From NCBI GenBank assembly GCA_039621445.1, contig CP154954.1, positions 11,960,716 to 12,024,715 of the forward strand: DNA of 64,000 nt, in the 5' to 3' direction. Each line of letters begins with the position of its first letter. The first letter of the stretch is position 1. The stretch comes from Euglena gracilis (lineage: Eukaryota). The notes below the pieces were generated by a model. The model had not been told where the DNA came from, did not search any database, and was given only the letters and a program-made list of their open reading frames with translations. Position numbers and translations under genes: made by a program. Positions 1-35,230 of the stretch are shown in pieces.

Positions 1-3000
1 TCGTACCAGGAACCTTCGTACAGCTCGTACGAGATTCCACAGCCGGAACCACAGAACCAGAACACTGACTGGGACTGGTGGTCGAACTTTGCGCACGAAA
101 CTGGACAGCTGACTCAGGAATTTAAACAGTTCAGACACAAAACTGAACGGACGAACCAGCAAACGGCAGAAACTCTGCAGCAGCTGCAACAAACAACGAC
201 GGAGTGGGTCAGCGAACTGCACGCCACAGTGAACAGACAGGGTGAAGCACTCATGACAGAAATAAACGGCAGACACGAAGAACTGACGACAGTCCTGGCA
301 ACAACACAAGCAAACATGGAACAAGTGACAGTCAACCAGAACAGGCTGTACCAGGAACATTTCAACGGAATGTCACAGCAGATCACAGAAATCAGGGAAA
401 TGTCTGGCTCACTGGGTGAAAAACTCAGGGAATTTCACAGTTTTCTGCAGATGGCAGGTGGAAACGCACAGAACCAGGGTGACCATCTGGTTGGTTTACT
501 ACATCGACAGCGAGAAAACGAAAAAACAACTGCAGAACTGCAACAGAGATTGGCTGTGGCAGAAGAACGGGTCGCAGGAATCACAGGCGGAGTCCAAACG
601 GTGAACAGCAAAGTGGACGAAACTGTGGCAACAGTGTCCAGAAAAGTTGAAAACCTCAGAGGTGAAATCAGCAGTATGGTGGAAAGAATTCAGAAGGACA
701 TGGGCAGTGAAATCGGAAATCTGGCAGGACGGGTTCAGCAGCAGGAAACAAAAACGACAACAACCATTCAAAACTGTGATTACCTGCACAAAAAACTGGT
801 CGAACTGCAGAAAATCCCAGATCAGCAGCAGCAGATTACACAGCTGAACGAGGAAATCGGCAGACTGAAACGACAGGTGGAAACCCTGACCTCCAACGAA
901 GAAAAACACAAACAACGCACTGAACGTCTGAACCTGGAGGTCGGCAACCTGGGTCACAGGGTGGACGAAACAGCCCAAACGACTCAAAACCTGCTGGGTG
1001 AACTACAAAAAGGGACCATTAAAACGGGAACACATGCCACATCTGAACATGCCAAATGGCTGGAAATGACATCTGCCATTGGCTCAATGACAACCAGGGT
1101 CGGTCAACTGGAAGCAAAACTGGCTGGTCTGACAACAAAAACTGCAGAACGGGAGACACATGACAACGGCATCTGGCAGCATTTACATTCTCTGACCACG
1201 GAACTGCAAACACAGCAGAAACGGTGGACAGAACAGCTGGTGACCCTGGACAGAAAAATCAGTACTGTGACAAAAACGACTGAAAACCTGACTGAAAAAC
1301 TGGAAAGGCAAAACACCCAGCAAATCACAACCCCCAGCCCTAGCCTGGCTGAAATACCCAAACTTTTTGAAAATCTTTGCATTTCCTCTCGCCCAGCCTG
1401 CACAGGGGCCTTCGGGCCAGAGTCAGGGGCCAGCCCCCTGGCCAGTGGGCCTCCCTCGAGGACCCAGGCTGGACAGCCAGGGGCAGCCACAACGGCCCAA
1501 CGAACAGAACCCCCCCAGGGGGCGGACAGGGCCGCGGGCCAACGGGGATCGGGGACCCCACAACCCCAGAACCAGCCCCCACCAGCCCCGAGGGGCCAGC
1601 CCACAAGACAACACGGGACGGGGACCCTAGAACCCCAGGCCTGGCCAACGGGGATGGGGACCCCACAACCCCTGGCCCAGCCACGGCCAGCCCTGAGGGG
1701 CCAGCCCGCAGGAAACCAAGGGACGGGGACCCCAGAACCCCTTGCCTGTCGAACGGGGACGGGGACCCCACAACCCCTGACAGGTATGTTCAGCCAGAGC
1801 AGCCAGCACTGGGGGGACGAAACACCACACCCAAAAATGGAAGGAGGAGCTGCAGCACTGGGGACCGTTAACTCGGCTTCCCTGGTGGGGCAGCTCATCC
1901 AACAAGAACTGAAAACTGCCTTGACACCGTTAATTGCCCAACTGACTCGACAAACAGAACGGCCGACTGCAGTCCCGACCAGCCCAGCTCTTACGACAAA
2001 CCCGACAAGCCCAGCACCACAGCCAACCCAGCCGACTCAACAGCCAGTGACGACACAACAAAACCCACAGTCCCGGACTCGGGGCTTGTTCATGTGGGCA
2101 GACGAAACCGAAACTCAGAACACAGCCACAACAACCTGGGTGGGACCCCAGATGGGGTCTGCCCAAACTGCCATCCACCACATAGGAGAGGAAACAGTGG
2201 TGGCACCCGTGGCAACGGCCCCGGCAGCATCCTTCGGGCTGCTGCTGGGTCCAGTGGGCGCGGCAATGACAAAAGACCTGGTAAGACCAACACTGCAGGG
2301 GAATTTCGCAGATTTTGCCGTGAAATTTCCGATGTACCTGCAACGTGTGTCAGCCGGTCAGGGGTCCCTGACCGATGACCTGAAACTGTCACTGCTGGAG
2401 GGCAGCCTGGACAGTGCCAGCAAACTGGAACTACAACGCAGACAGGAACGCGGTGAGAAAATAAAATACCAGGAATTTTGGAACTGGATGTGCCAGAAAT
2501 ACGGTGGAGACACGCAATCAGCCATCAAAGACGAACTGAAAACCTGAGACCAAAAACGGAAGGAAAACTGACACTGGAAGCGTGGAGGGAGTTTGAGGCC
2601 CATTTCAAACTCCTCTACAGCAGGCTGGAAAATCCATCAGAGGAAGACGCTTACAACCTGGTGGCTGAAAAAATGCCTGAAACGCAACGCAGAAGCTGCA
2701 TCAGGGAACAGGACCGCAGAAATCAGGACAGACCGACACTGAAACTGAAAGGGGTCACGAACATTATGAACGTCCCAGATGCAACAACGGAAGACATACG
2801 AGACCTGGTGGCAGCAACAGTGGGCACAGGTGAAAATTTTCAGGTGGCGCGGGACGGACAAAACTTCAGGATCCAACTGCACAGCAGCAGAGCTGCTGAA
2901 CTTCTCCTGATGAAAAACGGTTCAACGCTGCTGACTGGACACAAGCCACAATTCACACAGGTACAGGCCAAACTGACTCTGGACGAACTGTTCCAACGGG

Positions 3001-3637
3001 TGGAAACCGAACTCAGGTGCCAACAACAGTCAGACTCCCTGGGTAGGGGGTACAACGGCTGGCAGAACCAACCTCGTGAAAACAGGTCACGGTCGATGGA
3101 CCGCAGGGGTTACGTCAGGGAAGTCAAGGAGGAGGAGAAAACAAAATCCAGAAGTCGGACACCACCTTCCAGATCCCGACCCAACTCCCCTGGACCTCGA
3201 ACCCCAACACCCGAAAAACCCAGACCCCCTTCTCCACGCCAGCAGATGCCCATGGCAGTTTCAGAACAGCCTGGCCAGGGACGGAACACCAACTGGTCAG
3301 ACTGGGGACAGAACGACTGGGGCAAAGGCAAAGGAAAGGGGAAAGGTCAAAACTGGGGTTCAACCCAAAACTGGAACCAGAACTGGAATCAGAATTACGG
3401 CAAAGGCTACGATTCAGGAAAGGGATACAACTCTGGAAAGGATACGATTCTGGGAAGGGGAGCGGGAAAGGAAAAGGCAAAGGGCAGCCACAGCCACAGC
3501 CAGCAGCAACGAAAACCGAACCACAGACACAGCAAACCAATTCACAGGAGCCAGCCAACCAGCCACAGGGACAGCCAAAGGCAGAAGCATCTTCCAGCAA
3601 TCGCTGGCAGCCAGTTCAAAACACAGAACGGAAGTGA
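1..3637 (+). pseudogene. gag: Gag-like polyprotein, copy 1 (long coiled-coil, Pro/Gln-rich linker, capsid-like region, RS- and GKG-rich tail); frameshifted
   Basis: Frame open from base 1 (ORF 229-2547), continues in 2478-3653; single-base indels near 2540 and 3437 relative to copy 2; ends ERK-TGA at 3635-3637; no CCHC knuckle seen. Confidence 0.75.
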
Positions 3638-5272
3638 AGGGGCTGCGGCCTGAGGGTAGGGGACGAGAGGGGCGACTCTCTGCAGACACAACCGAAACAA
3701 CCAAACGAAACAAGGGAACCAGGTCCAGAGCCGCAGCGGTCATACACACTGGGTAAGGGAGGTAAGAAAAAACCCCAAAAGAAAAACATCCTGACAAAAA
3801 AACGACTCCACAGGCCAGAACCGAAAAGGGAACAGGTCAGCTGCAGGTTCGGCAGAGCAGCTTCACGGTGGGTGTCTGAAAACTACCACGTGAAGGAAGA
3901 AAAAATGACAGAAATTCTCTCACACTTCGGGGTCCAGCCCCAGCTGGATGCCTTTGCAACGGAAAAAAACAAAAGATTCCCGCAATGGTGGGGATCGGGC
4001 AGCCCAGACGGAACTGACGCCTTTGAAAAAGACTGGCACGGAAAACTGCTGTGGATGAACCCCCCATTCAGCAAAATTTCACAGGTGGTGAGAAAAATCC
4101 AAACAGACGAGGCCCATGCACTCCTCATGGTACCCAGATGGGTTCACAGAAAATGGTACGGAGAAATCAAAAAACTGACAGTGATGTCAATGTTCATCCC
4201 AGCGGGAACAAAACTGTTCGGACAGGGTGACAAGAACTGCAGGAATACACCGTGGCATGTGGAAGTGTTTTTGGTATGCGGACACAAAACACGGTGCAAG
4301 TACCTACCAGGTTTCCACAAACACTTCACCCCCCTACATCCGACATCCAAGGTGAGGTTCGGCACAGCCCACGAGTACCCGCCAGTGGAGGACGAGGTGG
4401 AGGGTGGTGAACAAAAACCTGATTTGGGGACAGAAAAACCACAGAAACACATCAGAAAACTGCAGGAGGCAGCCACAGCGACACCAGAATGGGCCATAGC
4501 GGAAAAACCAAAACCAAAAATGCTGGACCTGTTCTGTGGAACAAAATCGGTCAGCAAGGTGTATGAAAAAATGGGTTTCCAGGTGGTGACGGTGGACTCA
4601 GACCCCAGGTGGAAAGCGGATTACCAGGTGGACGTACTGGACTGGGACTTCAGAAAACATTTCAAACCTGGTGAATTCCACACGGTGGTTTGTGGAGTCC
4701 CCTGCACAGAATTCAGCATTGCACTGACGACAAGACCCAGAAACCTGGAAAAGGGAGACAGCCTTGCAAAGAAGGCCCTGGAAATTGTGGAATTTCTGCA
4801 GCCGCAGAAATGGTGGTTGGAAAACCCAAGGTACGGATACCTGGGAAAACGAGATTACATGAGGCCGTCCCCGTACATTGACGTGGATTACTGTCAATAC
4901 ACAAACTGGGGTTACAAAAAACCAACACGAATCTGGGGCAGCCCTGACATCCTGCAGGTACCAGCAAAACAGTGTGACGGAAAAACCTGCAAGAACCTTG
5001 ACCCGAACGGTGGTGGTCACCTGGTGAAACTCAGCAACAAACACAACATTTCAGCCTTCAAAAAATTCAGGACCCCAGAACAACTGATTCAGGACCTTGC
5101 GGGGTTCCACGAACGGCTAAGGCAAACCAGCCAAGCCCTAAGCCGCGCAGCAACAACCGCTGCAGCAGCCCAGCCCTGCCCAGACTGCACGACAAAACAT
5201 GCTCTCACAGCCCAGCGCAGAACTGACAGGTGGACAGCCAAACTCAGATTCAACGGACAAAACAGAACCTGA
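3638..5272 (+). CDS. Tandem DNA methyltransferase region: Dam-like N6-adenine MTase plus C5-cytosine MTase, copy 1
   Basis: N6 domain: LDAFA...DAFEKDW...LWMNPPF (NPPF 4058-4069)...LMVPRW. C5 domain: motif I MLDLFCG (4520), motif IV PC (4700-4705), motif VI ENP (4820-4828), YCQY...YKKPTRIW. Frame is open from the gag TGA onward. Confidence 0.9.
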   Translation, partial: RGCGLRVGDERGDSLQTQPKQPNETREPGPEPQRSYTLGKGGKKKPQKKNILTKKRLHRPEPKREQVSCRFGRAASRWVSENYHVKEEKMTEILSHFGVQPQLDAFATEKNKRFPQWWGSGSPDGTDAFEKDWHGKLLWMNPPFSKISQVVRKIQTDEAHALLMVPRWVHRKWYGEIKKLTVMSMFIPAGTKLFGQGDKNCRNTPWHVEVFLVCGHKTRCKYLPGFHKHFTPLHPTSKVRFGTAHEYPPVEDEVEGGEQKPDLGTEKPQKHIRKLQEAATATPEWAIAEKPKPKMLDLFCGTKSVSKVYEKMGFQVVTVDSDPRWKADYQVDVLDWDFRKHFKPGEFHTVVCGVPCTEFSIALTTRPRNLEKGDSLAKKALEIVEFLQPQKWWLENPRYGYLGKRDYMRPSPYIDVDYCQYTNWGYKKPTRIWGSPDILQVPAKQCDGKTCKNLDPNGGGHLVKLSNKHNISAFKKFRTPEQLIQDLAGFHERLRQTSQALSRAATTAAAAQPCPDCTTKHALTAQRRTDRWTAKLRFNGQNRT

Positions 5273-8200
5273 CCAAAACATTCGGCTTCCAAAACGACTG
5301 TGTGAACCGGTGTCCAAACTCCTGCTGGGGCAGGTCATCAGCAGAAAGAAAGCAAAACAACTCCTCATCGAAGTCCGTGCTGTGTTGCCGGACGGCAAAA
5401 AAATGTTCCTACAGGCCCTGATCGACACGGGAGCACAGGCAAACCTGGTGAAAAAGAACCTGATTCCCCAACAAAACTTCAGACGTTCACAAAAACACTT
5501 GGCCCTGATCACAGCGGACAAAACGAGGATGGAAGGAGGACTACACGAAGTCACACTGGAACTGCAGTTTTCATCACGGGTGCACAACACGGACAGAATA
5601 AGGGAATGTCCCACCATTGGAACATTCCATGACGCCGACATCCAAGTGGATGCCATCCTCGGGTATCCGTGGATGGAACAACACCAACTGGGGGTTTTTC
5701 CACACCTACAATCACTGGCCCTCATAGGTGAACCACTGCGGCTGCTGTCCAGTTGGCACCAGCTGAAGGAACAAAAACACAGGGAACGGAAAATACACCA
5801 ACTCCAGAAAAACATTTCGGCAGTGCGGGCAATGAATTTGCAGATTCCTGCTGAAGCGGGCCAGGACGAGGAAAAACTGTTTGAAGACGAAACGACGCTG
5901 GAAACACTGGCAAAACAATTTCAGAAATCGACAAATAAATCTGACAGGGTTCACGGTGTTGTGGTGGTGCCAGAAGGACAGGAAACACAAGGCGAAAAGG
6001 TGGCTGAACTGGTGAAAAAACTGCGGCAGGACTATGAAGGAGTGGTCTTGCGAGATAAAATCTTCCCAGACCCCCCTGAACGCGGACCACTGGGTTATGG
6101 GAAAATCGAACTGAAACCTGGAACAGTGGCAAAAAAGCAAAGACCCATCCACATGACGGGAGAACGACGACAGGCACTCATCGACATGGTGGACGAATGG
6201 GTTAGGGACCTGAAAGTGGAAGACGGGAGGAGTGACTGGTCCAGCCCCACGTTCGTGGTGGCCAAAAAAGGCGGAAAATGGAGAGGGGTGGTGGATTTCA
6301 GAGCACTGAACGAGGCAACAATCACAGACGCCCATCCCCTCCCCAGGATAGAAGACATCCTAGTTCAACAAGGACAACGGGCCCTGTACAGTGTACTGGA
6401 CCTGAAATACGCCTTCCACCAGGTGCCACTGAGAACAGAGTCCAGACCCTACACCTGCTGTAGCACACATAAGGGAACAAAACAGTGGAGAGTGGTGGTC
6501 ATGGGAATGAAAAACGGTGTACCGATCTTCCAGAGGGTGATCGAGTACAGCTTGGAGGAGGTACAGGACATTGCAAACCCCTACGTGGACGACATCATCG
6601 TAGGAATCATGTGGCAGGGATTTGAAGACAAAACCCTGGAACAACACGACAAGGACATCAGAAGGGTGATGGAGGCACTGAAAAAACAGCAGCACGTGGC
6701 AGACATCAAGAAATGCAAATTTTTCGTGAAAGAAGTTGAATTCTGTGGACACGTGCTGGGTGGTGGACAACGGAAACCTGCACCTGGAAAACTGATGGCT
6801 TTGGAAAAATGGGAGGAACCGAAAATGGTCACAGCCCTGCGGGCATTCCTGGGATTCACAAACTATTATGCCTCATACATCCCAGGGTATGCGGAATTGG
6901 CTGCAGACCTGATGGAAAAACTGAAGGTAAAAAAAGGACAGGGGAAGAAAGGAAGCCTGACACCTGTGTTTTTCGGTGAAAAGGAACAAACAGCCTTCCA
7001 GACCATCAAAGAAAAACTGCTCGGAAGCCTGAAACTGCAAACAGTGAACCCAGACAAACCGTTCGTACTCAGGGTGGATGCAAGTGGCAGAGCCGTAGGT
7101 GCGGCTCTGGAACAATTTGCGGAGGACACTGCAGAAAAACCAGACCCAACAACAGCCATGACCAAAAAAACAGTACCTGTAGCTTTCTGTTCACGAAAAC
7201 TGACACCTGGGCAGGTTCGCTCGTGGTCTCCTAGGGAGAAGGAGACCTACGCAGTGATCCTGGCCCTGCAAAAATGGGCTTCCTGGATAGGAATGCAACC
7301 GGTACTGGTGTTGACGGACCACAAATCCATTGAGGCATGGGCAACGGAAGCTCTGGACACCCCCAGTGGACCAGCGGGACGTAGGGCTAGGTGGCACGAA
7401 CTGCTTTCGCGGTTCGACATAACCGTTGCATACGTACCAGGCAAAGACAACACGGTCGCCGATGCCTTGAGTAGGTGGGCCTACCCCGCCTCACAGGCAT
7501 TCGCCGACGTGAGTATCCACGGGAGTGAGGAGGACGACCGACTCATGAAAGAAATCATCAAACAGGAGGAAAAGGAACAGAAAACTTGTATGGTGATCAA
7601 CGTGGCAGACCTGACACAGGCACAAAAACAGCTTCAGGAACCCGTCACTGTGGCCGTCACAACAAGGGGGGGAGCCAAAACGGGTGAAGATTCGCCCACA
7701 GTGCCTGGTTCAACGGAAAACGGTGACACCCCTCAAAAAATTTCAAACCCACCTCAAAAACCTGCAAAAACGACAAAGAAATGGGTTGTGAAGGAAACAA
7801 CTGTGGTGGAACCAAGCAAAAAACTGGCTGAGGCAACCCCAAGGGAGACCACGGATGAGGCAGGAAACCTGATCCGACCAGACCAACCAAAAAACAAAAC
7901 CCCAGAAAATTCAGACACGGCCGAGGGACCATCCACTGAGGAAGACCCACCAAGGCGAAGACCCCTGGAAGAGGACCCTGTGGAACCCCTAACAACAACA
8001 GACTCAACAAAACAACAGGACGCGCAAGGTGCGTCATCCTCAACGGGGACACCCGTTGGACCTCCATCAAGGGGAGTGCACGCCCCGGAGCTTCAACAGG
8101 GGGAACCGAAAGGGGTGATGGACAAGAAATGGAAGAACGAGTACGAAAGTTGCCCAAGGTGGGGACCTGTAAGGTGGGGACCTGTGCTCAAGATCCTGAA

Positions 8201-8291
8201 GGAAAGGGGGTTCAAAAACTGGCCTGACGGGTACCGATTTGACAACGGCAGGCTCTACAAAAAAGTCTCCTGTGTGTACCAAGTGGGTTGA
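5199..8291 (+). CDS. pol: Pol: aspartic protease, reverse transcriptase, RNase H, copy 1
   Basis: ALIDTGA and ILGYPW (protease); WRGVVDFRALN, LDLKYAFHQ, YVDD (RT); VDASGRAVGAAL, EKETYA, TDHK, NTVADALSR (RNase H). Confidence 0.95.
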   Translation: MLSQPSAELTGGQPNSDSTDKTEPDQNIRLPKRLCEPVSKLLLGQVISRKKAKQLLIEVRAVLPDGKKMFLQALIDTGAQANLVKKNLIPQQNFRRSQKHLALITADKTRMEGGLHEVTLELQFSSRVHNTDRIRECPTIGTFHDADIQVDAILGYPWMEQHQLGVFPHLQSLALIGEPLRLLSSWHQLKEQKHRERKIHQLQKNISAVRAMNLQIPAEAGQDEEKLFEDETTLETLAKQFQKSTNKSDRVHGVVVVPEGQETQGEKVAELVKKLRQDYEGVVLRDKIFPDPPERGPLGYGKIELKPGTVAKKQRPIHMTGERRQALIDMVDEWVRDLKVEDGRSDWSSPTFVVAKKGGKWRGVVDFRALNEATITDAHPLPRIEDILVQQGQRALYSVLDLKYAFHQVPLRTESRPYTCCSTHKGTKQWRVVVMGMKNGVPIFQRVIEYSLEEVQDIANPYVDDIIVGIMWQGFEDKTLEQHDKDIRRVMEALKKQQHVADIKKCKFFVKEVEFCGHVLGGGQRKPAPGKLMALEKWEEPKMVTALRAFLGFTNYYASYIPGYAELAADLMEKLKVKKGQGKKGSLTPVFFGEKEQTAFQTIKEKLLGSLKLQTVNPDKPFVLRVDASGRAVGAALEQFAEDTAEKPDPTTAMTKKTVPVAFCSRKLTPGQVRSWSPREKETYAVILALQKWASWIGMQPVLVLTDHKSIEAWATEALDTPSGPAGRRARWHELLSRFDITVAYVPGKDNTVADALSRWAYPASQAFADVSIHGSEEDDRLMKEIIKQEEKEQKTCMVINVADLTQAQKQLQEPVTVAVTTRGGAKTGEDSPTVPGSTENGDTPQKISNPPQKPAKTTKKWVVKETTVVEPSKKLAEATPRETTDEAGNLIRPDQPKNKTPENSDTAEGPSTEEDPPRRRPLEEDPVEPLTTTDSTKQQDAQGASSSTGTPVGPPSRGVHAPELQQGEPKGVMDKKWKNEYESCPRWGPVRWGPVLKILKERGFKNWPDGYRFDNGRLYKKVSCVYQVG

Positions 8292-9606
8292 CTGGAAACG
8301 TAATTCGGGAACATCACGAAATAGCCGGGCACCCAGGGTCAGCCCGACTGTGGGACCAGATGGGAAGGTGGTTTGCGTTTGCGGACCACCAAGATGCAAA
8401 GAAACTGACAGGCAAAATGATGACCATGTGTGAAACCTGCCAAGCAACAGAACCCAGCCACTTACCATACAAGTGCCCCATTGAACCGACACCGATTCCT
8501 GCACACCTGATGGACAGTGTTGCTATCGATTTGTTCTCACTACCTGAAACGACTTTTGAAGGGAAAAAATATGACACGTTGGCGTTGTGTGTGGACACGC
8601 TGAGTGGGTGGATGGTTGCAACCCCCCACCTGGCCAAGGGACTCACAGCAGAAAAGGTTGGAAAGGAAATGTACAAACAATGGGGAATTTTTGGGATACC
8701 CTCGGTGGTGAGCTCCGACCGGGGCTCCCATTTCACAGCCGGTTGGTGGAAAACACTGTGTGCTGCCCACGGGGTCCGTGTGGCGTACGGGCAGGCATAC
8801 CACCACCAAGCCAACGGACGGGCTGAGGTAGCGGGTCAACAAGTCCTCCGAAAACTGGCAAAACTGGCTGCTGAAAAAGGGGTACCCTGGGTTGAACTCC
8901 TACCAAACGCCTTGAGGGCCCTACACGACGTCCCAGGTGAAACGGGATTGTCACCGTACGAAATTGTGTTTGGCAGGCACAGACCGTTGGCGGGATTGCC
9001 ATACCAACCACAAAAGGAAGCGGAAGGGGCCACAACGTTCTTGGAAAGGATGAAAGAGCAAGACCAGTGGGTGAGTCTGGTCCTGAACGAAAAACAGCGT
9101 GAACGGGCTGAAACGGTGAACCGAAAACGCAGAGAACCACCTGCCTTGGAAATCGGTTCCAAAGTCTGGTATCAACCTAAAAGACAACCTGGTACCGGCA
9201 AACTCGAACCGAAGTGGAAAGGACCTGCGGTGGTGTTGGAACGGGTAGGACAGCCCTACGTGGTTGAACTACGACCTGGGAACCGACAACCTGCCCACCG
9301 TTCACAACTCAAACCCCACATGGAGGACCTCTACAACACAACCCCTGTCCCCCTCTACTTTTGGTCGGGCAAGGCACAGGAGTTGGATGTTGGACCGGAC
9401 GAGTGGGAGGTTGAAAAAGCGCTGAACCACCGCAGAAAAGACCGAAAACTTCAATTTTGATTCAGTGGAAAAACTGGGACCCATCTGATACTCAGTGGGA
9501 ACCCCTGAACCACTTCGTCCTTCGAACAAACAAAGATGTGGTCCAGTATTGCAAGAAACGGGACCTGGCTGTTGATGTGAGGGAGTTGCTCGATGGGATG
9601 GAGTGA
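8288..9606 (+). pseudogene. Integrase plus C-terminal chromodomain, copy 1 (frameshifts near 8265 and 9455)
   Basis: HH...H/CETC zinc finger, DLF...SDRG...NGRAE catalytic triad, WKGP motif, EWEVEK...QWKNW...QWEP chromodomain. Confidence 0.9.
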
Positions 9607-10725
9607 CACATGTCACGGGCCCCCTCACAGACACCGTCACGTCGACACCCCGAACGACCCCAAAGCCAACCCCAACCCTACCACCCAAACCAACCTCGAC
9701 TGACTTGAACCTGTACAAAATCTGCCTGGCCAAAACGACAAAACGGGCCTGGGCAGCCCCCCTGGCCAGCCCACCTGAACCTGAACCGCTGGCCAGCTCA
9801 ACTCGACCCAGCCCAACTGTCCCGTACAAGACCCGATCCGACCCGACTTGACTGACCTCAAGTGCCTCTCTTCAGCCAATCAATCCATTCTTCAATTCGC
9901 CATCGTTGTTGTTGTGGGTTGGGACCCCCCCTTGTGGAGAATGAACCTTCCCCCCGGACCTGGCAAGCCTACCTGTAAAAAAAAAAAAACACAGCCCCCA
10001 ACCCCAACCGTGGCAGCCAGCCAAAACTGGGCAAACGGTGGAAGGGGAACCTGACTTTGACCCAAAAACGCAGAGCTGGCCGACCCCGGGCCACCGGCCT
10101 GGGGGGGGGGGCGAGGATCCTCCACGGCACCAGACCTCGCACAAACCAGCCTACCCCCCAGAAAAAAATGGAAATATACAAAAAAACATTGTCCTTGACC
10201 CAGCCTGACTTTAACCAAAAACCCATCCTTCACCTGATTTTTATTAAAATTCGTCCCCGGCCAAAGCCTGACCGCTTGGCCTGGGGGGGGGTGGAAGACC
10301 CAAGCTGGACCCACCCCCCACCGAACAGACACCAAGCTTAGACACCGAATTGGCTAACCGAACAGAAAACGGCTGTCTAGGACCCTGACCGTGACAAAAC
10401 AACTCACCTGGCCTGGGAATAAAAATTTCCGGAAAATTTAACCGTGGTTGGCGCTTGGTTCACAACGGCGCCTGCCCCCCCCCCAACGACAAACAGCCCT
10501 AGGCGGGCTGGGGGGGGGGACAACACACCAGACCCCGCACAGACCCAACTGTCAAAGGAGAACATTTGACTCAGCCCCCCGGCCATAAAACGAACCTGAA
10601 CGGCACAGCCCCCTGAGGGGGGGGACCCTGAACCACAACGGTCCCCTCGCTCGCCCCCTCCTCACAACGAGTGCACTCCGCACCCCTTCCTGTTGGAGTC
10701 GTGAAGAGTTGTAAACAACTCCTTC

Positions 10726-10736
10726 GGGAAGGGGAG
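10726..10736 (+). promoter_or_regulatory. Polypurine tract, copy 1
   Basis: GGGAAGGGGAG immediately before the LTR-initial TGTG. Confidence 0.85.
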
Positions 10737-11215
10737 TGTGAGTCAGGGGTGCTGAGTGCCCAAAACAACATAACCTAACCCAACCCAACCTGATGACTCT
10801 GCAGTTAGGATTAGGAAAATCTTATTAGGAATTATTAGCAGCTGACCCCATTGTCCCTGCACAGGGCTCTGCAACTGTTTTTGTCTGTTTCAAGTTCAAG
10901 AATTGAATTATCTTGGTGGCAATCATCATTCTTACCTGGACAGTACGTGGTTCATAACATTGGTGCTGGTTTTGGAATTGCTGAATTGCTTGTATTGTGC
11001 TGTTGGTCTTGTGGATTTTTTATCAAAGAAAAGGTGTGAGCCACCCAACTCACCTGTTTTCACCAAAAAGACCCACAAAAACAAAAGAAAATGCAATTTT
11101 TAAAACAAGCCGCGAGGGGAATTGAAAACACATTGGGCAGGGTTAAAGATCCTACGCAAAGGGGTGCCGGCCTCGAGGAACTGGAAACTCCAGGGCGGGC
11201 ACCACGGGTACAACA
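10737..11215 (+). repeat. 3' LTR of copy 1 (479 bp)
   Basis: TGTGAGTCAGGGG...TACAACA; homologous to 20747-21216 and 33052-33521 but visibly more diverged. Confidence 0.93.
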
Positions 11216-12499
11216 TTATCCTATTATATTCGTTTCCGGCAATTGTTAGTTTTTTCTCTCTTTGTTCATAAGTGTCCTCATCGGGCCAGTGTATTACATT
11301 TAAAAAAAAACAGTGTATGAACATGAGTACGGGTTTTTTCTTTGCTTATTCCAATTAACAGGCTTGTACATATCACAGGTTCTCTTTCAACCAATTTGGT
11401 TTTCCTATTCTTGTTATTTTGCAAGGTGTCCCACAATCTATGTTTTAATTTGTGTTTCGTTTTTCCTTCTTTCTGTTTTTGCCATTTTGGACTGCCCTGA
11501 CCCATCTCAGCCATTATTGTACAGTTCTCCTTCGACGTCCCTGTCGCCTCCGACCATTCCATTGCTTTTGAGACCACCTACATTTCAGCCCCAATCCCTC
11601 ATCCAAAACCTTTCGGCGTGTACCAATCTGACAGCATCTCAGGTTTTTTTGTGGTGGTATTACTCATAATTGGTTATGATTACCACCTCTGCGGCCCAGT
11701 TATGTATATTTTCCCTGGACACCATCCTCTTTTTTCTGGCCTCACATTTTTCCCGGGGGCAGTTTTCACAAGTTATCAATTCTGTATTTGTGTTTGCGGT
11801 TGAGATTTCCCCTCCCATTCAGCCATCTGTTATTTACAGCGGATGTTGGTCCTGGGTTCCGTGATGGAGTCTCGTGAATGATGTTTGTCATAGTGCTTCG
11901 ATTTGGCCACCACACTCAACCCCTGTATTTTCCTCCCCCCGCTTACACGTTGGACCCGGACCCATCCGTCATGAACGTTTTGGTGGCTTGCTTTTCTTCA
12001 TTTCCTGCACCAGTTTCTGATTTTATCCTTTCTCCTTTGAAATGCTGGGCTCCCATAATTTGCACTGCGCACCACCATGAAACTTCGGCGTCCCATTTTT
12101 CGCCCCTTGATTTTCATGCTGCCTGCACTCTGGTTCTTCAACGCTCCCTTGCTCTAAAATTTCCCCTCACCTAACCCCCCCCCAAAGCTCCCTGCCACCC
12201 CTTTTTTTGGCCTGCCCTAACTTTTGTCCACGCTGTGGGCCTCCCCCATTGCATTCATCTTGTCATATGGCTCTCGCCCACGGGCTGGCTGTACTTGCTA
12301 CGTGTGCTTTTGTTTCCCTTATCTCCAACGCTCGGTTGCCTGGCGGGACCTTTTTTGAGAATCTTTCTCTTGGTCATGTTCAACCAGTTTTCCGTTCTCA
12401 TACTCAATGCCTGGCCCACCCCTCCCCAGGGCTCCGGGTCCCTTCGTGGGGATAGCTGTGGAAGTCGCCACCTCCTTCTCCTCACGGGAGCAGCCCTTC

Positions 12500-20746: not shown

Positions 20747-21216
20747 TGTGAGTCAGGGGTGCTGAGTGCCCAAAACAACATAACCTAACCCAACCCAACC
20801 TGATGACTCTGCAGTTAGGATTAGGAAAATCTTATTAGGAATTTCAATTGCTGACCCCATTGTCCCTGCACAGGGCTCTGTCTTGTTTTTGTCTGTTTCA
20901 AGTTCAAGAATTGAAAATATCTTGGTGGCAATTATCATTCTTACCTGGACTCTACGTACTTTTGGTTTTGGATCGGTGTGGTGTATTTGCTGAATTGCTT
21001 GTATTGTGCTGTTGGACTTGCGGATTTTTTTCAAAGGAAAGCCAACCAACCCACCTGTTTTCATTAAAAAGACCCACCAAAACAAAAGAAAATGCAATTT
21101 TTGAAACAAGCCGCGAGGGGAATTGAAATCACCCTGGGCAGGGTAAAAGATCCTACGCAACGGGGTGCCGGCCCCGAGGAACTGGAAACTCCAGGGCGGG
21201 TACCACGGATACAACA
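20747..21216 (+). repeat. 5' LTR of copy 2
   Basis: TGTGAGTCAGG...GATACAACA, direct repeat of 33052-33521. Confidence 0.95.
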
Positions 21217-21228
21217 TGGTCGCAGAGG
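21217..21228 (+). promoter_or_regulatory. Primer binding site, probably initiator tRNA-Met
   Basis: TGGTCGCAGAGG directly after the LTR end; one mismatch to TGGTAGCAGAGG, the complement of the 3' end of animal-type tRNAiMet. Confidence 0.7.
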
Positions 21229-21550: not shown

Positions 21551-24500
21551 AGCAACAGGTGGACTGAAACTGAACAAGACGGCACAGACATTACAGTGCC
21601 ACGGACATGCAATGACAGCCCACGTGTCATTGCCATGGTGCACATGGACCAGGACGACACCGAACAGACCGGTCCAGCACCAGATTACACAGAACTGGAC
21701 GAAAACAACGAACCGTACTTCGACGAACAGGTGTTTGCACCACAAAACTGGTACCAACAGCCAGAAACGGACACTCAGAACAACCAAAACTGGCAAACCG
21801 CAACAGCACAGCAACCAGGAACCCCGAGTTTTGCACTGGTGGCGGTACGACAGAGCCCGGAACAACCAGACCGCCTCCAGGGTGAAACTGAAACTTCGTA
21901 CCAGGAACCTTCGTACAGCTCGTACGAGATTCCACAGCCGGAACCACAGAACCAGAACACTGACTGGGACTGGTGGTCGAACTTTGCGCACGAAACTGGA
22001 CAGCTGACCCAGGAATTTCAACAGTTCAGACACAAAACTGAACGGACGAACCAGCAAACGGCAGAAACTCTGCAGCAGCTGCAACAAACAACGACGGAGT
22101 GGGTCAGCGAACTGCACGCCACAGTGAACAGACAGGGTGAAGCACTCATGACAGAAATAAACGGCAGACACGAAGAACTGACAACAGTGCTGGCAACAAC
22201 ACAAGCAAACATGGAACAGGTGACAGTCAACCAGAACAGGCAATACCAGGAACATTTCAACGGAATGTCACAGCAGATCACAGAAATCAGGGAAATGTCT
22301 GGCTCACTGGGTGAAAAACTCAGGGAATTTCACAGTTTTCTGCAGATGGCAGGTGGAAACGCACAGAACCAGGGTGAACATCTGGTTGGTTTACTACACC
22401 GACAGCGAGAAAACGAAAAAACAACTGCAGAACTGCAACAGAGATTGGCTGTGGCAGAAGAACGGGTCGCAGGAATCACAGGCGGAGTCCAAACGGTGAA
22501 CAGCAAAGTGGACGAAACTGTGGCAACAGTGTCCAGAAAAGTTGAAAACCTAAGAGGCGAAATCAGCAGTGTGGTGGAAAGAATTCAGAAGGACATGGGC
22601 AGTGAAATCGAAAATCTGGCAGGACGGGTTCAGCAGCAGGAAACAAAAACGACAACAACCGTTCAAAATTGTGATTACCTGCACAAAAAACTGGTCGAAC
22701 TGCAGAAAATCACAGATCAGCAGCAGCAGATTACACAGCTGAACGAGGAAATCGGCAGACTGAAACGACAGGTGGAAACTCTGACCTCCAACGAAGAAAA
22801 ACACAAACAACGCACTGAACGCCTGAACCTGGAGGTCGGCAACCTGGGTCACAGGGTGGACGAAACAGCCCAAACGTCTCAAAAACTGCTGGGTGAACTA
22901 CAAAAAGGGACCATTAAAACAGGAACACATGACACGTCTGAACATGCCAAATGGCTGGAAATGACATCTGCCATTGGCTCAATGACAACCAGGGTCGGTC
23001 AACTGGAAACAAAACTGGCTGGTCTGACAACAAAAACTGCAGAACGGGAAACACATGACAACGGCATCTGGCAGCATTTACATTCGCTGACCACGGAACT
23101 GCAAACACAGCAGAAACGGTGGACAGAACAGCTGGTGACCCTGGACAGAAAAATCAGTACTGTGACAAAAACGACTGAAAACCTGACTGAAAACTGGAAA
23201 GGCAAAACACCCAGCAAATCACAACCCCCAGCCCTAGCCTGGCTGAAATACCCAAACTTTTTGAAAATCTTTACATTTCCTCTCGCCCAGCCTGCACAGG
23301 GGCCTTCGGGCCAGAGTCAGGGGCCAGCCCCCTGGCCAGTGGGCCTCCCTCGAGGATCCAGGCTGGACAGCCAGGGGCAGCGACAACGGCCCAACGGACT
23401 GAACAACCCCGCCAGGGGGCAGACAGGGCCGCGGGTCAACGGGGATCGGGGACCCCACAACCCCAGAACCAGCCCCCGGCAGCCCTGAGGGGCCAACCCA
23501 CAGGACAACACGGGACGGGGACCCCAGAACCCCACACCTGGCAGACGGGGATGGGGACCCCACAACCCCTGGCCCAGCCACGGCCAGCCCTGAGGGGCCA
23601 GCCCGCAGGAAACCAAGGGAAGGGGACCCCAGAACCCCAGGACTGTCAAACGGGGACGGGGACCCCACAACCCCTGACAGGTATGTTCAGCCAGAGCAGC
23701 CAGCAGTGGGGGGACGAAACACCACACCCAAAAATGGAAGGAGGAGCTGCAGCACTGGGGACCGTTAACTCGGCTTCCCTGGTGGGGCAGCTCATCCAAC
23801 AAGAACTGAAAACTGCCTTGACACCGTTAATTGCCCAACTGACTCGACAAACAGAACGACCGACTGCAGTCCCGACCAGCCCAGCACTACTTACGACAAA
23901 CCCGACAAGCCCAGCACCACAGCCAACCCAGCCGACTCAACAGCCAGTGACGACACAACAAAACCCACAGTCCCGGACTCGGGGCTTGTTCATATGGGCA
24001 GACGAAACTGAAACTCAGAACACAGCCACAACAACCTGGGTGGGACCCCAGATGGGGTCTACCCAAACTGCCATCCACCACATAGGAGAGGAAACAGTGG
24101 TGGCACCCGTGGCAACGGCCCCGGCAGCATCCTTCGGGCTGCTGCTGGGTCCAGTGGGCGCGGCAATGACAAAAGACCTGGTGAGACCAACACTGCAGGG
24201 GAATTTCGCAGATTTTGCCGTGAAATTTCCGATGTACCTGCAACGACTTCAGCCGGTCAGGGGTCCCTGACCGATGACCTGAAACTGTCACTGCTGGAGG
24301 GCAGCCTGGACAGTGCCAGCAAACTGGAACTACAACGCAGACAGGAACGCGGTGAGAAAATAAAATACCAGGAATTTTGGAACTGGATGTGCCAGAAATA
24401 CGGTGGAGACACACAATCAGCCATCAAAGACGAACTGAAAAACCTGAGACCAAAAACGGAAGGAAAACTGACACTGGAAGCGTGGAGGGAGTTTGAGGCC

Positions 24501-25544
24501 CATTTCAAACTCCTCTACAGCAGGCTGGAAAATCCATCAGAGGAAGACGCTTACAACCTGGTGGCTGAAAAAATGCCTGAAACGCAACGCAGAAGCTGCA
24601 TCAGGGAACAGGACCGCAGAAATCAGGACAGACCGACACTGAAACTGAAAGGGGTCACGAACATTACAAACGTCCCAGATGCAATGACGGAAGACGTTCG
24701 TGACCTGGTGGCAGCAACTGTGGGTACAGGTGAGAATTTTCAGGTGGCACGAGACGGACAAAACTTCAGGATCCAACTGCACAGCAGAAGAGCTGCTGAA
24801 CTGCTCCTGATGAAAAACGGTTCAACGCTGCTGACTGGACACAAGCCACAATTCACACAGGTACAGGCCAAACTGACATTGGACGAACTGTTCCAACGGG
24901 TGGAAACCGAACTCAGGTGCCAACAACAGTCAGACTCCCTAGGTAGGGGGTACAACGGCTGGCAGAACCAACCTCGTGAAAACAGATCACGGTCGATGGA
25001 CCGCAGGGGTTACGTCAGGGAAGTCAAGGAGGAGGAGAAAACAAAATCCAGAAGTCGGACACCACCTTCCAGATCCCGACCCAACTCCCCTGGACCTCGA
25101 ACCCCAACACCTGAAAAACCCAGGCCCCCTTCTCCACGCCAGCAGGTGCCCATGGCAGTTTCAGAACAGCCTGGCCAGGGACGGTACACCAACTGGTCAG
25201 ACTGGGGACAGAACGACTGGGGCAAAGGCAAAGGAAAGGGGAAAGGTCAAAACTGGGGTTCAACCCAAAACTGGAACCAGAACCAGAACTGGAATCAGAA
25301 TTACGGCAAAGGCTACGATTCAGGAAAGGGATACAACTCTGGGAAAGGATACGATTCTGGGAAGGGGAGCGGGAAAGGAAAAGGCAAAGGGCAGCCACAG
25401 CCACAGCCAGCAGCAACGAAAACAGAACCACAGACTCAGCAAACCAACTCACAGGAGCCAGCCAACCAGCCACAGGGACAGCCAAAGGCAGAAGCATCTT
25501 CCAGCAACCGCTGGCAGCCAGTTCAAAACGCAGAACGGAAGTGA

Positions 25545-27137
25545 AGGGGCTGCGGCTTGAGGGTAGGGGACGAGAGGGGCGACTCTCTGCAGGCACAACC
25601 GAAACAACAAAACAAAACAAGGGAACCAGGTCCAGAGCCGCAGCAGTCATACACACTGGGTAAGGGAGGTAAGAAAAAACCCCAAAAGAAAAACATCCTG
25701 ACAAAAAAACGACTCCACAGCCCAGAACCGAAACGGGAACAGGTCAGCTGCAGGTTCGGCAGAGCAGCTTCACGGTGGGTGTCTGAAAACTACCACGTGA
25801 AGGAAGAAAAAATGACAGAAATTCTCTCACACTTCGGGGTCCAGCCCCAGCTGGATGCCTTTGCAACGGAAAAAAACAAAAGATTCCCGCAATGGTTCGG
25901 ATCTGGCAGCCCTGAGGGCACAGACGCCTTTGAAAAAAACTGGCACGGAAAACTGCTGTGGATGAACCCCCCATTCAGCAAAATTTCACAGGTGGTGAAA
26001 AAAATTCAAACAGACGAGGCCCATGCACTCCTCATGGTACCCAGATGGGTTCACAGAAAATGGTACGGAGAAATCAAAAAACTGGCAGTGATGTCAATGT
26101 TCATCCCAGCGGGAACAAAACTGTTCGGACAGGGTGACAAGAACTGCAGGAATACACCGTGGCATGTGGAAGTGTTTTTGGTATGCGGACACAAAACACG
26201 GTGCAAGTACCTACCAGGTTTCCACAAACACTTCACCCCCCTACATCCGACATCCAAGGTGAGGTTCGGCACAGCCCACGAGTACCCGCCAGTGGAGGAC
26301 GAGGTGGAGGGTGGTGAACAAAAAACCGACCTGGGGACAGAAAAACCACAGAAACACATCAGAAAACTGCAGGAGGCAGCCACAGCGACACCAGAACGGG
26401 CCACAGCAGAAAAACCAAAACCAAAAATGCTGGACCTGTTCTGTGGAACAAAATCGGTCAGCAAGGTGTATGAAAAAATGGGTTTCCAGGTGGTGACGGT
26501 GGATTCAGACCCCAGGTGGAAAGCGGATTACCAGGTGGACGTGCTGGACTGGGATTTCAGAAAACATTTCAAACCTGGTGAATTCCACACGGTGGTGTGT
26601 GGGGTTCCCTGCACAGAATTCAGCATTGCCCTGACGACAAGACCCAGAAACCTGGAAAAGGGAGACAGCCTTGCAAAGAAAGCCCTGGAAATTGTGGAAT
26701 TTCTGCAGCCGCAGAAATGGTGGTTGGAAAACCCAAGGTACGGATACCTGGGAAAACGAGATTACATGAAACCGTACCCGTACATTGACGTGGATTACTG
26801 TCAATACACAGACTGGGGCTACAAAAAACCAACACGAATCTGGGGCAGCCCCGACATCCTGCAGGTACCAGCCAAACGGTGTGACGGGAAAACGTGCAAG
26901 AACCTGGACCCAAACGGTGGAGGTCACCTGGTGAAACTCAGCAACAAACACAACATTCCAGCCTTCAAGAAATTCAGGATCCCAGAACAACTGATTCAGG
27001 ACCTGGCGGGGTTCCACGAACGGCTACGGCAAACCAGCCAAGCCCAGGCCGCGCAGCAACAACCGCTGCAGCAGCCCAGCCCTGCCCAGACTGCACGACA
27101 AAACATGCTCTCACAGTCCAGCCCAGCCCAGAACTGA
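25545..27137 (+). CDS. Dam-like N6-adenine MTase plus C5-cytosine MTase, copy 2
   Basis: Same motifs as copy 1 (NPPF; LDLFCG, PC, ENP), all intact; same frame as gag after TGA 25542-25544. Confidence 0.9.
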   Translation, partial: RGCGLRVGDERGDSLQAQPKQQNKTREPGPEPQQSYTLGKGGKKKPQKKNILTKKRLHSPEPKREQVSCRFGRAASRWVSENYHVKEEKMTEILSHFGVQPQLDAFATEKNKRFPQWFGSGSPEGTDAFEKNWHGKLLWMNPPFSKISQVVKKIQTDEAHALLMVPRWVHRKWYGEIKKLAVMSMFIPAGTKLFGQGDKNCRNTPWHVEVFLVCGHKTRCKYLPGFHKHFTPLHPTSKVRFGTAHEYPPVEDEVEGGEQKTDLGTEKPQKHIRKLQEAATATPERATAEKPKPKMLDLFCGTKSVSKVYEKMGFQVVTVDSDPRWKADYQVDVLDWDFRKHFKPGEFHTVVCGVPCTEFSIALTTRPRNLEKGDSLAKKALEIVEFLQPQKWWLENPRYGYLGKRDYMKPYPYIDVDYCQYTDWGYKKPTRIWGSPDILQVPAKRCDGKTCKNLDPNGGGHLVKLSNKHNIPAFKKFRIPEQLIQDLAGFHERLRQTSQAQAAQQQPLQQPSPAQTARQNMLSQSSPAQN

Positions 27138-33051: not shown

Positions 33052-33521
33052 TGTGAGTCAGGGGTGCTGTGTGCCCAAAACAACATAACCTAACCCAACC
33101 CAACCTGATGACTCTGCAGTTAGGATTAGGAAAATCTTATTAGGAATTTGAATTGCTGACCCCATTGTCCCTGCACAGGGCTCTGTCTTGTTTTTGTCTG
33201 TTTCAAGTTCAAGAATTGAAAATATCTTGGTGGCAATTATCATTCTTACCTGGACTCTACGTACTTTTGGTTTTGGATCGGTGTGGTGTATTTGCTGAAT
33301 TGCTTGTATTGTGCTGTTGGACTTGTGGATTTTTTTCAAAGGAAAGCCAACCAACCTACCTGTTTTCATTAAAAAGACCCACCAAAACAAAAGAAAATGC
33401 AATTTTTGAAACAAGCCGCGAGGGGAATTGAAATCACCCTGGGCAGGGTAAAAGATCCTACGCAACGGGGTGCCGGCCCCGAGGAACTGGAAACTCCAGG
33501 GCGGGTACCACGGATACAACA
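33052..33521 (+). repeat. 3' LTR of copy 2
   Basis: Direct repeat of 20747-21216, TG...CA termini. Confidence 0.95.
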
Positions 33522-35230
33522 TCTAGCAAGTCTAGCTAGCCCCTGGGCTCTCCAACAAATTTCATTATTCCAGACCCTAGACCCCTCACCCCTCGAACCT
33601 GACCGGTGCGGTTGGCTCGCAACCCGACAGGGAGGCCCCGCGGGACCCCCCCCCCAGTGCCTGGGCTCCGGGGGGTTCAGGTTCCAACCAAAAGGGCCAG
33701 CCTTCGCCTGGCCAGGGGCGGGGGGTCTTACATGGGGTGGGTCTGATATGGGGGGGGGGGCATGGTAGTGGAAAATGAGAGAGGCCATTCACCCCCAACC
33801 ATCAAAACGGTGAAGTTCACTGGTGAACTCGGCGGTGAAGTTCACGGCCGAAAGCACCGCCCCCCCCCCCCGGTGAACTTCACCAGTGAAGTTCACTGAC
33901 AGGGTCCACAACCCCCCCACGTACTGCCTAACCTCCTTTGTGAAGGGTGTGGCGTATTGTGACATCCACTGCCACGGGGCCACCGCTGTCCAAGCGGTTT
34001 GAAGAGTTCAGGGGAGTAAGGCTATGTACAGAGGCAACAGTCTGTGCACGCTGGTGGAGGGAGGGAAGGTAAAGGGGACGAGCTTAGAGAATAGTAGAAG
34101 GCGCGAGGTGAGGCCGCTGTTGATCAGCTTCCGGTGTTCTTCGGCCACGCGAGTCAGAGTGGTTGGGCAGGCAATGGGGAGGTGGCAGGGCTCGGTGCCG
34201 TTTAAGGTGGGTGTTGATGACGGGGCCGGTGATTCCGTTTTCCGCTGTCTTTCGCGCCCTGCGGCTCCTCGGGGGCGTCGTTGAGGCTCCGACGTGCTGC
34301 GTTGGTGGCGTGGCGGGTGTGGAGTCCTGCTTGCTTTGGCTGCTCTGTAGAGGTCAACTGCGGTAGTTGTTTGTCGAAGTCCACTTCAGGAGACGGTATG
34401 TGAGCATCTTCCCAACGAATTGTTTCCTCCAGCGCACCTCAGTTTGTTGTACTGACAGGCCTTATGGGTAGCATTGCGACGTAATTTACAAATGTAAGTT
34501 TCGCGTGTAACTTACAGGTAACTTACAGCGTAATTTATTTTTAAATTACGGTCGTGTAATTTTTGTTTTGCGTCCTTCTGGAATTTGGGATTGCCTATGT
34601 TTTTTCTTTGTTCAAAAACGTGGTCGTTTAATGGAGACAAGGCACAGGGGGGGGAGGGGGGGTCCGAGGGGGGGGTTGGAAGCTGTATAGGGGGGGGGGT
34701 CCCCAGAAAATCACAACTGTACTGCCTACCCCCGAGACAGTTGCAACATTTTTTGTCCAATTGAGGTTGGCAATGATGGATTTTGCGAAATTCAGATGCA
34801 TTTTGCGAAATATTTGTCTCTTGTAAAAAGAATGGTAGCCAGTGTTTTCACTTTAAACACTCAGCAGAAAGGCAGGAAGCAGCTTCAATCACTCCCCCTT
34901 GGCACACCATGCGTAATTGAGCTAAGGTTGACGTTTTTTTGTTTTTCAACAAAGAACAAAAAATATTTTTTTTTCAAAAAAAACACAAAAAAACTGTCCT
35001 TTTTCCTTGCGAAATGGCCATTTTTTGAGGAAAAAGGTCATTTTTTTGGTCATTAAAAGTGAGGTTTTTTTTAGTTTTTCCAGACACTTGATCCAGCACC
35101 CTTTACGACTACGAAGCTGTAGAGATGAAAAAAGGACCTTTTTTCTAAAAAAAACAAGTTTCAAAAAAATTACCCCAAACCCTCCATGAGGTTTTTTTTT
35201 AAGGGGGTACTACTATTTTTCTTAGGGGTA

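Follow-up and report, generated by a model that had tools for sequence, protein, structure and literature searches.

The question raised by this locus is how ribosomes reach a polyprotein that lies behind an in-frame stop codon without a start codon ahead of its conserved sequence. The locus is a long terminal repeat (LTR) retrotransposon present in two copies in a 64,000-nt stretch of the Euglena gracilis genome (assembly GCA_039621445.1, contig CP154954.1, positions 11,960,716 to 12,024,715 of the forward strand), which we call the window and in whose coordinates all positions are given. In this element a long first open reading frame (ORF1), placed where gag would be expected, ends in a single TGA, and a second one (ORF2), encoding two methyltransferases (MTases) followed by the Pol domains, continues in the same frame. 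The sequence comparisons indicate that the TGA is a genuine terminator of the gag-equivalent ORF1 and not a lesion, and that the translated protein would reach back to residue 70 or beyond in the post-TGA frame, with residue 83 certainly included; both residues lie upstream of the first ATG. UGA readthrough, which would generate an ORF1-MTase-Pol fusion, is the best reading of these data, and we consider the chances that it is correct to be about even.

Self-comparison of the window identified both copies on the plus strand, with copy 1 at 1-11216, cut at its 5' side by the window start, and copy 2 at 20747-33522. They aligned over their whole length, with 96-97% identity internally and 88-90% identity across the LTR regions, and a global alignment contained 412 mismatches and 39 indels. 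The LTRs of copy 2 are ~470 nt each and differ from one another at 4 sites. Since the DNA past the 3' LTRs is unrelated between the two copies, they are independent insertions and did not arise by segmental duplication. The junction DNA was compared in these two copies, while relatives were compared as proteins.

A sequence-only reading of this DNA had described the TGA in a shared context, about 90 following sense codons without an ATG, and four G-runs behind the stop, all of which were borne out. The TGA is present in 2/2 copies in the context ...GAACGGAAG TGA AGGGGCTGCGGC..., and the 18 + 21 nt around it match between the copies except for two substitutions. In copy 2, the ORFs at 24012..25544 and 25545..27137 are in one frame with a single stop between them, as had been claimed for both copies. 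Copy 1 departs from this arrangement: a 1-nt indel at 3434 offsets the main ORF1 frame (2457..3653), and the frame that ends in the TGA is open only from 3080. This indel sits within GKGYDS repeats, the pattern of which is retained in copy 2, and the 16-nt ORF1/ORF2 overlap seen in copy 1 was rejected as a native arrangement because it is due to the indel that breaks the repeat. After the TGA there are 89 sense codons, with no ATG in any frame over 267 nt, while stops occur 4 and 3 times in the two alternative frames of the spacer. In shuffled spacers, the probability of finding no stop in 89 codons was 0.029 and that of finding no ATG was 0.041; thus, the open, ATG-free spacer modestly exceeds chance. 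The ATG-free stretch extends upstream as well and, with 660 nt free of ATG in all frames (25152-25812), it is the longest in the internal region of copy 2, covering the ORF1 tail and the spacer up to the first ATG of ORF2. The strand is poor in T, which makes up 14.8% of the element and 10.5% of the spacer (coding-strand AT skew of ~0.43, A over T), so open frames are cheap, and noncoding frames are often long and open. The post-TGA ORF has no start of its own before the conserved sequence and is open from the stop on, and its first 69 codons showed no constraint.

Several comparisons point to the TGA as a native feature. The conserved domain of ORF1 (copy 2, 24246-25085) was used as a query and had 316 homologues at E≤0.001 in a representative library, of which the best 150 were examined. 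The match reached the end of the domain in 81 of these 150, and 0/81 ran into Pol; their tails past the domain had a median length of 113 amino acids (aa) and a maximum of 351 aa, compared with 152 aa in the window element, and 45/81 homologues ended 100 to 260 aa past the domain. No ORF1 domain was found upstream of MTase-Pol among 23 long MTase-Pol proteins, the Pfam scan for such a domain covering 17 relatives, 15 of them from these 23. The called Pol ORFs of the relatives begin shortly 5' of the first MTase domain, and P0001, a protein from a third copy that is 96% identical, begins at the first GTG past the stop position with no run-in from ORF1.

Selection on the sequence behind the stop was assessed by a codon-wise comparison of the two copies, with each segment between indels read in its open frame. 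The ratio of nonsynonymous to synonymous substitution (dN/dS) was 0.19 for ORF2, with 103.5 synonymous versus 70.5 nonsynonymous differences over 1,864 codons, and it was low in all parts of ORF2 (0.10 for the C5 MTase, 0.31 for the N6 domain, and 0.20 for the region from protease to integrase). ORF1 had a dN/dS of 0.26 over 1,203 codons, while codons 1 to 70 after the stop (3638-3847) had 0.73, a value based on only 7 differences. Besides the junction TGA, there were 0 in-frame stops in the 3,067 codons (1,203 + 1,864) of either copy. On this comparison, ORF2 diverged under purifying selection, and because the lineages diverged under this selection and both copies carry the TGA, ORF2 was probably expressed with the TGA in place.

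Conserved coding sequence, at residues 70 to 85 of the post-TGA frame, also precedes the first ATG. In alignments with relatives at 29 to 45% identity, the closest relatives share the motif RFGRxxSRW[VI] 5' of the first Met, and the tyrosine of an (E/D)-x-Y-x-V motif, Tyr83 of the post-TGA frame, is kept in 12/12 aligned relatives. The sequence-only reading had noticed this motif as ENYHV, sitting 5' of the first Met, and as DYAL in the MTase of a second, DIRS-like element of the window; both were seen, and QDYAL lies at an equal distance from the IDAFAS motif of that MTase. In contrast to Tyr83, the position of Met90 is occupied by Y, Y, Y, Q, F, and others in the relatives. An AlphaFold2 model of ORF2 residues 60 to 290 (13-row alignment, mean pLDDT of 71.7, core >90) predicted that residues 60 to 80 are disordered, that order begins at about Glu81, and that Met90 lies inside a helix at 87 to 97, and the model matched the N6-adenine methyltransferases PCIF1 and KsgA/Dim1 in the PDB. 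Since conserved codons precede the first ATG, ribosomes most probably enter ORF2 without using it. With a native stop, selection on ORF2, and conserved coding ahead of the first ATG, either the TGA has to be bypassed or ORF2 has to be entered without that ATG.

By its domain content, the element is a 12.8-kb Ty3/Gypsy chromovirus-like LTR retrotransposon with two MTases at the N terminus of Pol. It has LTRs, the domain order protease (PR), reverse transcriptase (RT), RNase H, and integrase (IN), and a chromodomain at the C terminus of IN. Scanning of stop-to-stop frames with Pfam placed a Dam-like N6 MTase (PF05869, profile positions 21 to 119) at residues 92 to 190 of the post-TGA frame and a C5 DNA MTase (PF00145) after it, with a chromodomain (PF00385) also present; the matches downstream of the MTases were an aspartic protease, RVT_1, RT_RNaseH, Integrase_H2C2, rve, SH3_Tf2-1, and Chromo. 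No uninterrupted frame joins the MTase part to PR-RT in either copy, as there is a frame break of 1 nt at 5139 in copy 1 and of 5 nt at 27114 in copy 2, each of which shifts one copy only. The continuous MTase-Pol region proposed in the sequence-only reading was thus absent from both copies, but it does exist in P0001 and in distant relatives, in which the MTase-to-PR part reads in one frame.

ORF1 comprises ~1,400 codons (21068-25541 in copy 2 and 1-3634 in the cut copy 1) and is made up of a long coiled-coil-like N-terminal part with weak Pfam matches, a P/Q-rich stretch, the conserved domain, and a GK/NW/PQ-rich tail. Because of indels, the upstream parts of ORF1 in copy 2, including the coiled coil, lie in other frames. 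As in the window element, at least 400 aa stand upstream of the domain in 15/150 examined homologues. The model of the domain (30-row alignment, pLDDT of 86.7) contained 7 helices, a canonical RRM-type beta-alpha-beta-beta-alpha-beta unit, and a long helix, and the top matches in a PDB search with it were RRM domains, with a TM score of 0.75 on the target. There was no capsid among the PDB matches listed, the 7-helix N-terminal part being searched only as part of the whole domain, and the domain had 0 matches at E≤0.001 in a viral library. A CCHC zinc knuckle is absent from the ORF1 tail in the window. The tails of the homologues are GK-rich as in the window element, and several have added CCHC knuckles, either as Pfam zf-CCHC matches (P0089, P0090, P0101, and P0123) or as CCHC-type motifs recognized by eye (P0100 and P0103). 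The designation of ORF1 as Gag in the sequence-only reading fits its position, but neither a capsid match for the conserved domain nor a knuckle in the window's tail went with it, and "Gag" is a positional label here. Judged from the modeled domain, the layout of ORF1 resembles that of LINE ORF1p more than that of Gag.

UGA readthrough is favored because it accounts at once for the shared frame of ORF1 and ORF2, for an ORF2 frame that stays open right up to the ORF1 stop, and for the fact that ORF2 needs no ATG. The majority of ribosomes would terminate at the UGA and release the ORF1 protein, while in a small fraction a near-cognate tRNA would decode the UGA and the ribosome would continue through the 69-codon linker, giving the ORF1-MTase-Pol fusion and thereby setting the ratio of ORF1 to Pol. 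Since ORF2 is in the ORF1 frame, −1 and +1 frameshifting are excluded by the geometry. General reassignment of TGA was likewise rejected, as no in-frame TGA other than that of the junction occurs in 3,067 codons and the terminator of ORF2 is also TGA. The proposal of the sequence-only reading that readthrough sets the ratio is therefore in keeping with the geometry, the native stop, and the conserved coding before the first ATG, but not with the context of the stop, which is not known to be leaky.

The evidence for a 3' stimulator is suggestive and comes from predicted structures. A G-quadruplex-type motif follows the stop, with runs in the order GGGG, GGG, GGGG, and GGGG. RNA G-quadruplexes are able to stimulate recoding. 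Motifs of this type (four runs and loops of ≤12 nt) occur 3 times per ~12-kb copy on the plus strand, one of them at the junction. Additionally, a GC stem is predicted 4 nt past the stop. Its perfect part has 8 bp; in copy 1 it reaches 11 bp if a bulge is included, in copy 2 it reaches 10 bp, and it encloses ~80 nt. Such a stem occurs at 2.6% of element positions. The G-quadruplex motif and the stem overlap, so they are mutually exclusive. In the two copies, the only difference within the stem region is one-sided, a C/T at 3650. G-rich or stem-forming RNA just 3' of the stop may aid bypass, and in one rather improbable variant of the readthrough reading the G-quadruplex motif itself would drive readthrough at this nonleaky UGA-A. 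If true, this would be a type of stimulator outside those described in the literature cited here.

A number of observations weigh against readthrough or fail to lend it support. The context AAG-UGA-AGG matches none of the described leaky contexts (UGA-C, UGA-CU(AG), UGA-CGG, and AA before the stop), and the identity of the stop as TGA is uninformative because TGA makes up ~80% of the stop triplets of the strand (72/63/81 TGA per frame versus 7 to 10 TAA or TAG). The predicted folding energies near the stop were not, or only marginally, better than those of shuffled sequences, the z scores being +0.21 and −1.15 in a 131-nt segment, −0.81 and −2.0 in one of 108 nt, and +0.8 in one of 53 nt; stimulation by RNA structure, as suggested in the sequence-only reading, thus has a G-quadruplex motif and a candidate stem near the stop on its side and these z scores against it. 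The 4-nt distance from stop to stem is shorter than the 7 to 9 nt of proven elements. The 108 nt past the stop contain ~5 differences between copies that are 97% identical, which is no extra conservation, and the conservation of the G-runs is uninformative because only two copies at this identity were compared. Rfam gave 0 matches at E≤1 in 3400-4000, and in the whole window it matched 3 tRNAs only, with no SECIS or other element. The spacer peptide showed no similarity beyond chance to the N termini of 9 relatives: shuffled sequences scored as well in 24/500 cases for P0002, the best match, in 9/500 for P0079, which aligned in a different segment, and in at least 122/500 for each of the other seven, so conservation of the spacer in relatives was rejected, and the spacer looks like an unconstrained linker. 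Finally, in many relatives a Met precedes the domain in the Pol ORF, so that separate initiation would be possible there.

Readings in which MTase-Pol is a separate protein have to be weighed against this. It could be made by termination-dependent, AUG-independent reinitiation or by near-cognate initiation in the spacer, in the manner of LINE-1 ORF2, a possibility that gained weight because the ORF1 domain was modeled as RRM type without a capsid match; with its coiled-coil-like N-terminal part as well, the ORF1 protein is closer to LINE ORF1p than to a capsid protein. Translation of human L1 ORF2 reportedly does not depend on its AUG and follows that of an upstream ORF (PMC4091050). In the element studied here, the longest ATG-free stretch spans the ORF1 tail and the spacer, the stop is not in a context known to be leaky, and there is an in-frame near-cognate CTG at 3650 in copy 1 (TTG in copy 2). 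However, reinitiation offers no reason for ORF2 to share the frame of ORF1 and to be open up to the exact stop (P of ~0.03 for the open frame × 1/3 for the shared frame), the Pol of LTR elements is usually delivered to particles as a Gag-Pol fusion, and reinitiation is normally very inefficient after an ORF of 1,400 codons. We therefore regard it as unlikely, and its full form, in which there is no Gag-Pol fusion at all and a Ty3/Gypsy element combines a LINE-ORF1p-like ORF1 with AUG-independent reinitiation as a LINE-type strategy, as rather improbable. Removal or bypass of the TGA by splicing of the mRNA, either in cis or in trans with a spliced leader, after which Pol would be made from an in-frame upstream exon or from a separate mRNA, is quite unlikely. 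The upstream Met of many relatives would fit such a message, and copy 2 has 267 and copy 1 has 154 in-frame GT/GC-AG pairs across the stop, including a donor over the stop (GAA/GTGAAG) and an acceptor (CTGCAG/G at 3846) that would join ...AERK to FGRAASRW, the start of the conserved segment. The number of pairs is nevertheless at chance level and none has a good polypyrimidine tract, a separate mRNA starting in the spacer would initiate at Met90 and drop the invariant Tyr83, and an intron needs no open frame in the spacer, yet the spacer is open.

The same tyrosine bears on a start of Pol at the first ATG itself, on a subgenomic or internally initiated message, with the upstream segment outside the active protein. 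Such a start would accord with the position of this ATG as the first after 660 nt, with the Pfam Dam match beginning at residue 92, and with the predicted disorder of ORF2 residues 60 to 80; the presence of Tyr83 in 12/12 relatives within a segment that is in frame, the lack of conservation of the Met, and an ordered fold from about residue 81 with Met90 within the first helix all make it improbable. The least credible explanation, and one that we consider very improbable, is that a single-ORF element acquired the TGA as an inactivating mutation and passed it on to two dead copies. Both copies do contain frame-breaking indels, with several of the 39 indels between them in coding sequence, and the comparison includes n = 2 copies. 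Against a lesion stand the ORF1 homologues, none of which enters Pol and the tail lengths of which bracket that of the window element, the MTase-Pol proteins with no ORF1 upstream, the low dN/dS of ORF2 with no further in-frame stop, the independence of the two insertions, and the start of P0001, which lies at the first GTG beyond the stop position. UGA readthrough hence remains the reading that we prefer.

The coordinates of the features of the element and of the rest of the window are collected below.

Features of the element and of other parts of the window (positions in the window)
Feature	Position	Position in copy 2	Strand	Basis or remark
5' LTR, copy 2		20747..21217	+	TG...CA ends; TGG... 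primer-binding-like site next
ORF1 conserved domain (helical + RRM-like) and GK/PQ-rich tail, copy 2		24246..25541	+	Homologues, model
TGA ending ORF1, copy 1	3635..3637		+	Sequence
TGA ending ORF1, copy 2		25542..25544	+	Sequence, ORFs; in frame with ORF2 directly
Spacer, 69 codons, K/P/Q-rich	3638..3844	25545-25751	+	Frame open; ATG-free in any frame
Four G-runs, G-quadruplex-type motif	3639..3672	25546-25579	+	Begins 2 nt past stop
Candidate extended stem-loop	3642..3737	25549-25644	+	Arm GCUGCGGC (3642-3649) pairs with GCCGCAGC (3730-3737)
Conserved in-frame segment RFGRAASRWVSENYHV	3845..3892	25752-25799	+	Upstream of first Met; Tyr83 in 12/12 relatives
Dam-like N6-adenine MTase domain	3878..4300	25785-26207	+	Pfam, AlphaFold model, PDB matches
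First ATG after stop (Met90 of ORF2)	3905..3907	25812-25814	+	Within N-terminal MTase helix; not conserved
C5 cytosine DNA MTase domain	4517..5104 (3' end approximate)	26424-27011	+	Pfam, alignments
PR-RT-RNase H-IN(-chromodomain) part of ORF2	5142..9460 (two frames)	26885-31317 (several frames)	+	ORFs, Pfam
3' LTR, copy 1	10737..11216		+	Flank unlike that of copy 2
3' LTR, copy 2		33052..33522	+	TG...CA ends
tRNA gene, Gln-CTG	36493-36566			Rfam
RT of DIRS-like element	37578-38690		-	Pfam
Phage_integrase of DIRS-like element	39135-40022		-	Pfam
Dam-like MTase ORF of DIRS-like element	42892-44460		-	Own Met 16 residues before DY motif
tRNA gene, unreadable anticodon	47899-47973			Rfam
tRNA gene, Thr-AGT	48043-48116			Rfam

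The two copies also differ in length. Copy 2 has ~600 nt of extra DNA past the chromodomain region (31335-32014 versus 9623-9714 in copy 1), with blocks of 204, 168, and 208 nt, and copy 1 has 192 additional in-frame nucleotides in the PR-RT region (6217-6408). Among named proteins, the element matched only a partial "Genlisea aurea" record and, weakly, Symbiodinium ones. In related chromovirus-like Pol ORFs from outside the window (P0002 to P0086), the MTase modules occur in shuffled orders, namely N6-C5, as in the window element, C5-N6, PR before N6 (P0072), and N6-PR-C5 (P0075, P0078, P0079, and P0081). A scan of genome contigs for related loci gave 251 pattern matches, of which 3 were confirmed; all of these were bacterial or from metagenome-assembled genomes, and matched the C5 MTase only, weakly, at 29 to 33% identity. 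A junction query (ORF1 tail + X + spacer + N6 start) returned 5,926 word-sharing candidates, none of which reached a score, the low-complexity tail having swamped the index. Elsewhere in the window, the DIRS-like element is a tyrosine-recombinase retroelement on the minus strand at ~37500-45050, and a tandem array at 50275-63032 consists of at least 5 to 6 units of ~2.4 to 2.6 kb that are 61 to 100% identical and contain ORFs without a Pfam match; Rfam gave no match in it.

LTR elements with two MTases have been described only recently. A preprint (bioRxiv 10.64898/2026.05.21.726589, May 2026) presents EpiLTRs from Euglena gracilis and Cymbomonas tetramitiformis as LTR retrotransposons with DAM, DNMT, and a chromodomain, and the window element combines these three epigenetic modules, as a Dam-like N6 MTase, a C5 DNMT, and a chromodomain, within a single Ty3/Gypsy-like Pol ORF, a likeness that refers to domain content and not to phylogeny. 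In the main text of that preprint, supplements aside, the terms "gag," "stop codon," "readthrough," and "frameshift" do not occur, so the balance of structural protein to enzyme is untreated there, and the literature searched yielded no gag-pol strategy for dual-MTase elements, a point on which the supplements of the preprint may bear. Because both MTases sit at the N terminus of Pol behind the stop without a start codon of their own, their dosage would be set by whatever passes the stop. The DNMT retrotransposons of Symbiodinium (PMC5890265) were considered as the same architecture and rejected, since those described there are of the LINE and DIRS types.

Should readthrough not be the mechanism, the architecture of ORF1 would suggest that an LTR element uses a LINE-like strategy, and this outcome would be the more surprising one. 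AUG-independent translation of L1 ORF2 is a finding of which Alisch 2006 is reportedly the source. As described in PMC4091050, it requires completion of the upstream ORF. The window element shares with human LINE-1 an ORF1 protein with a coiled coil and an RRM-like fold, and in LINE-1 entry into ORF2 is independent of an AUG; unlike LINE-1, it is an LTR element with PR and IN, and the homologues of its ORF1 often end in CCHC knuckles.

If, on the other hand, readthrough is correct, the element would add an example of protist type in which the context of the stop, UGA-A and rich in G, is unusual, and viral systems then offer comparisons for its RNA. As in MuLV, a gammaretrovirus, an in-frame stop separates gag and pol and is followed just 3' by purine- or G-rich sequence; MuLV differs in having UAG, an 8-nt spacer, and a compact pseudoknot (PMC3159437), and nothing comparable was predicted here, where folds of 53 nt had a z of +0.8 and Rfam gave no match. 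UGA readthrough in alphaviruses and several plant viruses is described as being stimulated by extended stem-loops with 7- to 9-nt spacers and usually C at +4 (PMC3159437). A stem of the alphavirus type would be expected to have ~11 to 12 bp, to lie 7 to 9 nt after the UGA, and to be supported by covariation. The window element resembles these alphavirus- and furovirus-type stimulators in its UGA and in a predicted long-range stem of ~10 to 11 bp with a 1-nt bulge enclosing ~80 to 100 nt, but its spacer is 4 nt instead of 7 to 9, its +4 nucleotide is A and not C, and the z scores were −0.81 and −2.0.

The nearest parallels in genome organization are Tj1, Tosmo1-3, and Tcry1, elements of the fission yeast Tf1/sushi group in the chromovirus branch, in which an in-frame TGA between Gag and Pol is interpreted as programmed readthrough; the Tj1 stop is reported to be essential for transposition, with Tca2, skipper, and MuLV cited alongside (bioRxiv 10.1101/2022.12.06.519325). 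The premise of the sequence-only reading that most Gypsy elements use frameshifting or one ORF is to be corrected accordingly, because in-frame stops are described in these members of the group. As in these elements, one in-frame TGA separates the structural ORF of the window element from Pol and is proposed to set the ratio of Gag to Gag-Pol. In contrast to their strictly conserved GAA-TGA-CT, the window element has AAG-TGA-AG, it carries a 69-codon linker and two DNA methyltransferases between the stop and PR, and its ORF1, known here from sequence alone, is ~1,400 codons long and encodes a coiled coil along with an RRM-like domain. Overall, a gag-pol junction with an in-frame stop is already known in chromoviruses, and what is new in this element is the different context of the stop and the unusual cargo behind it.

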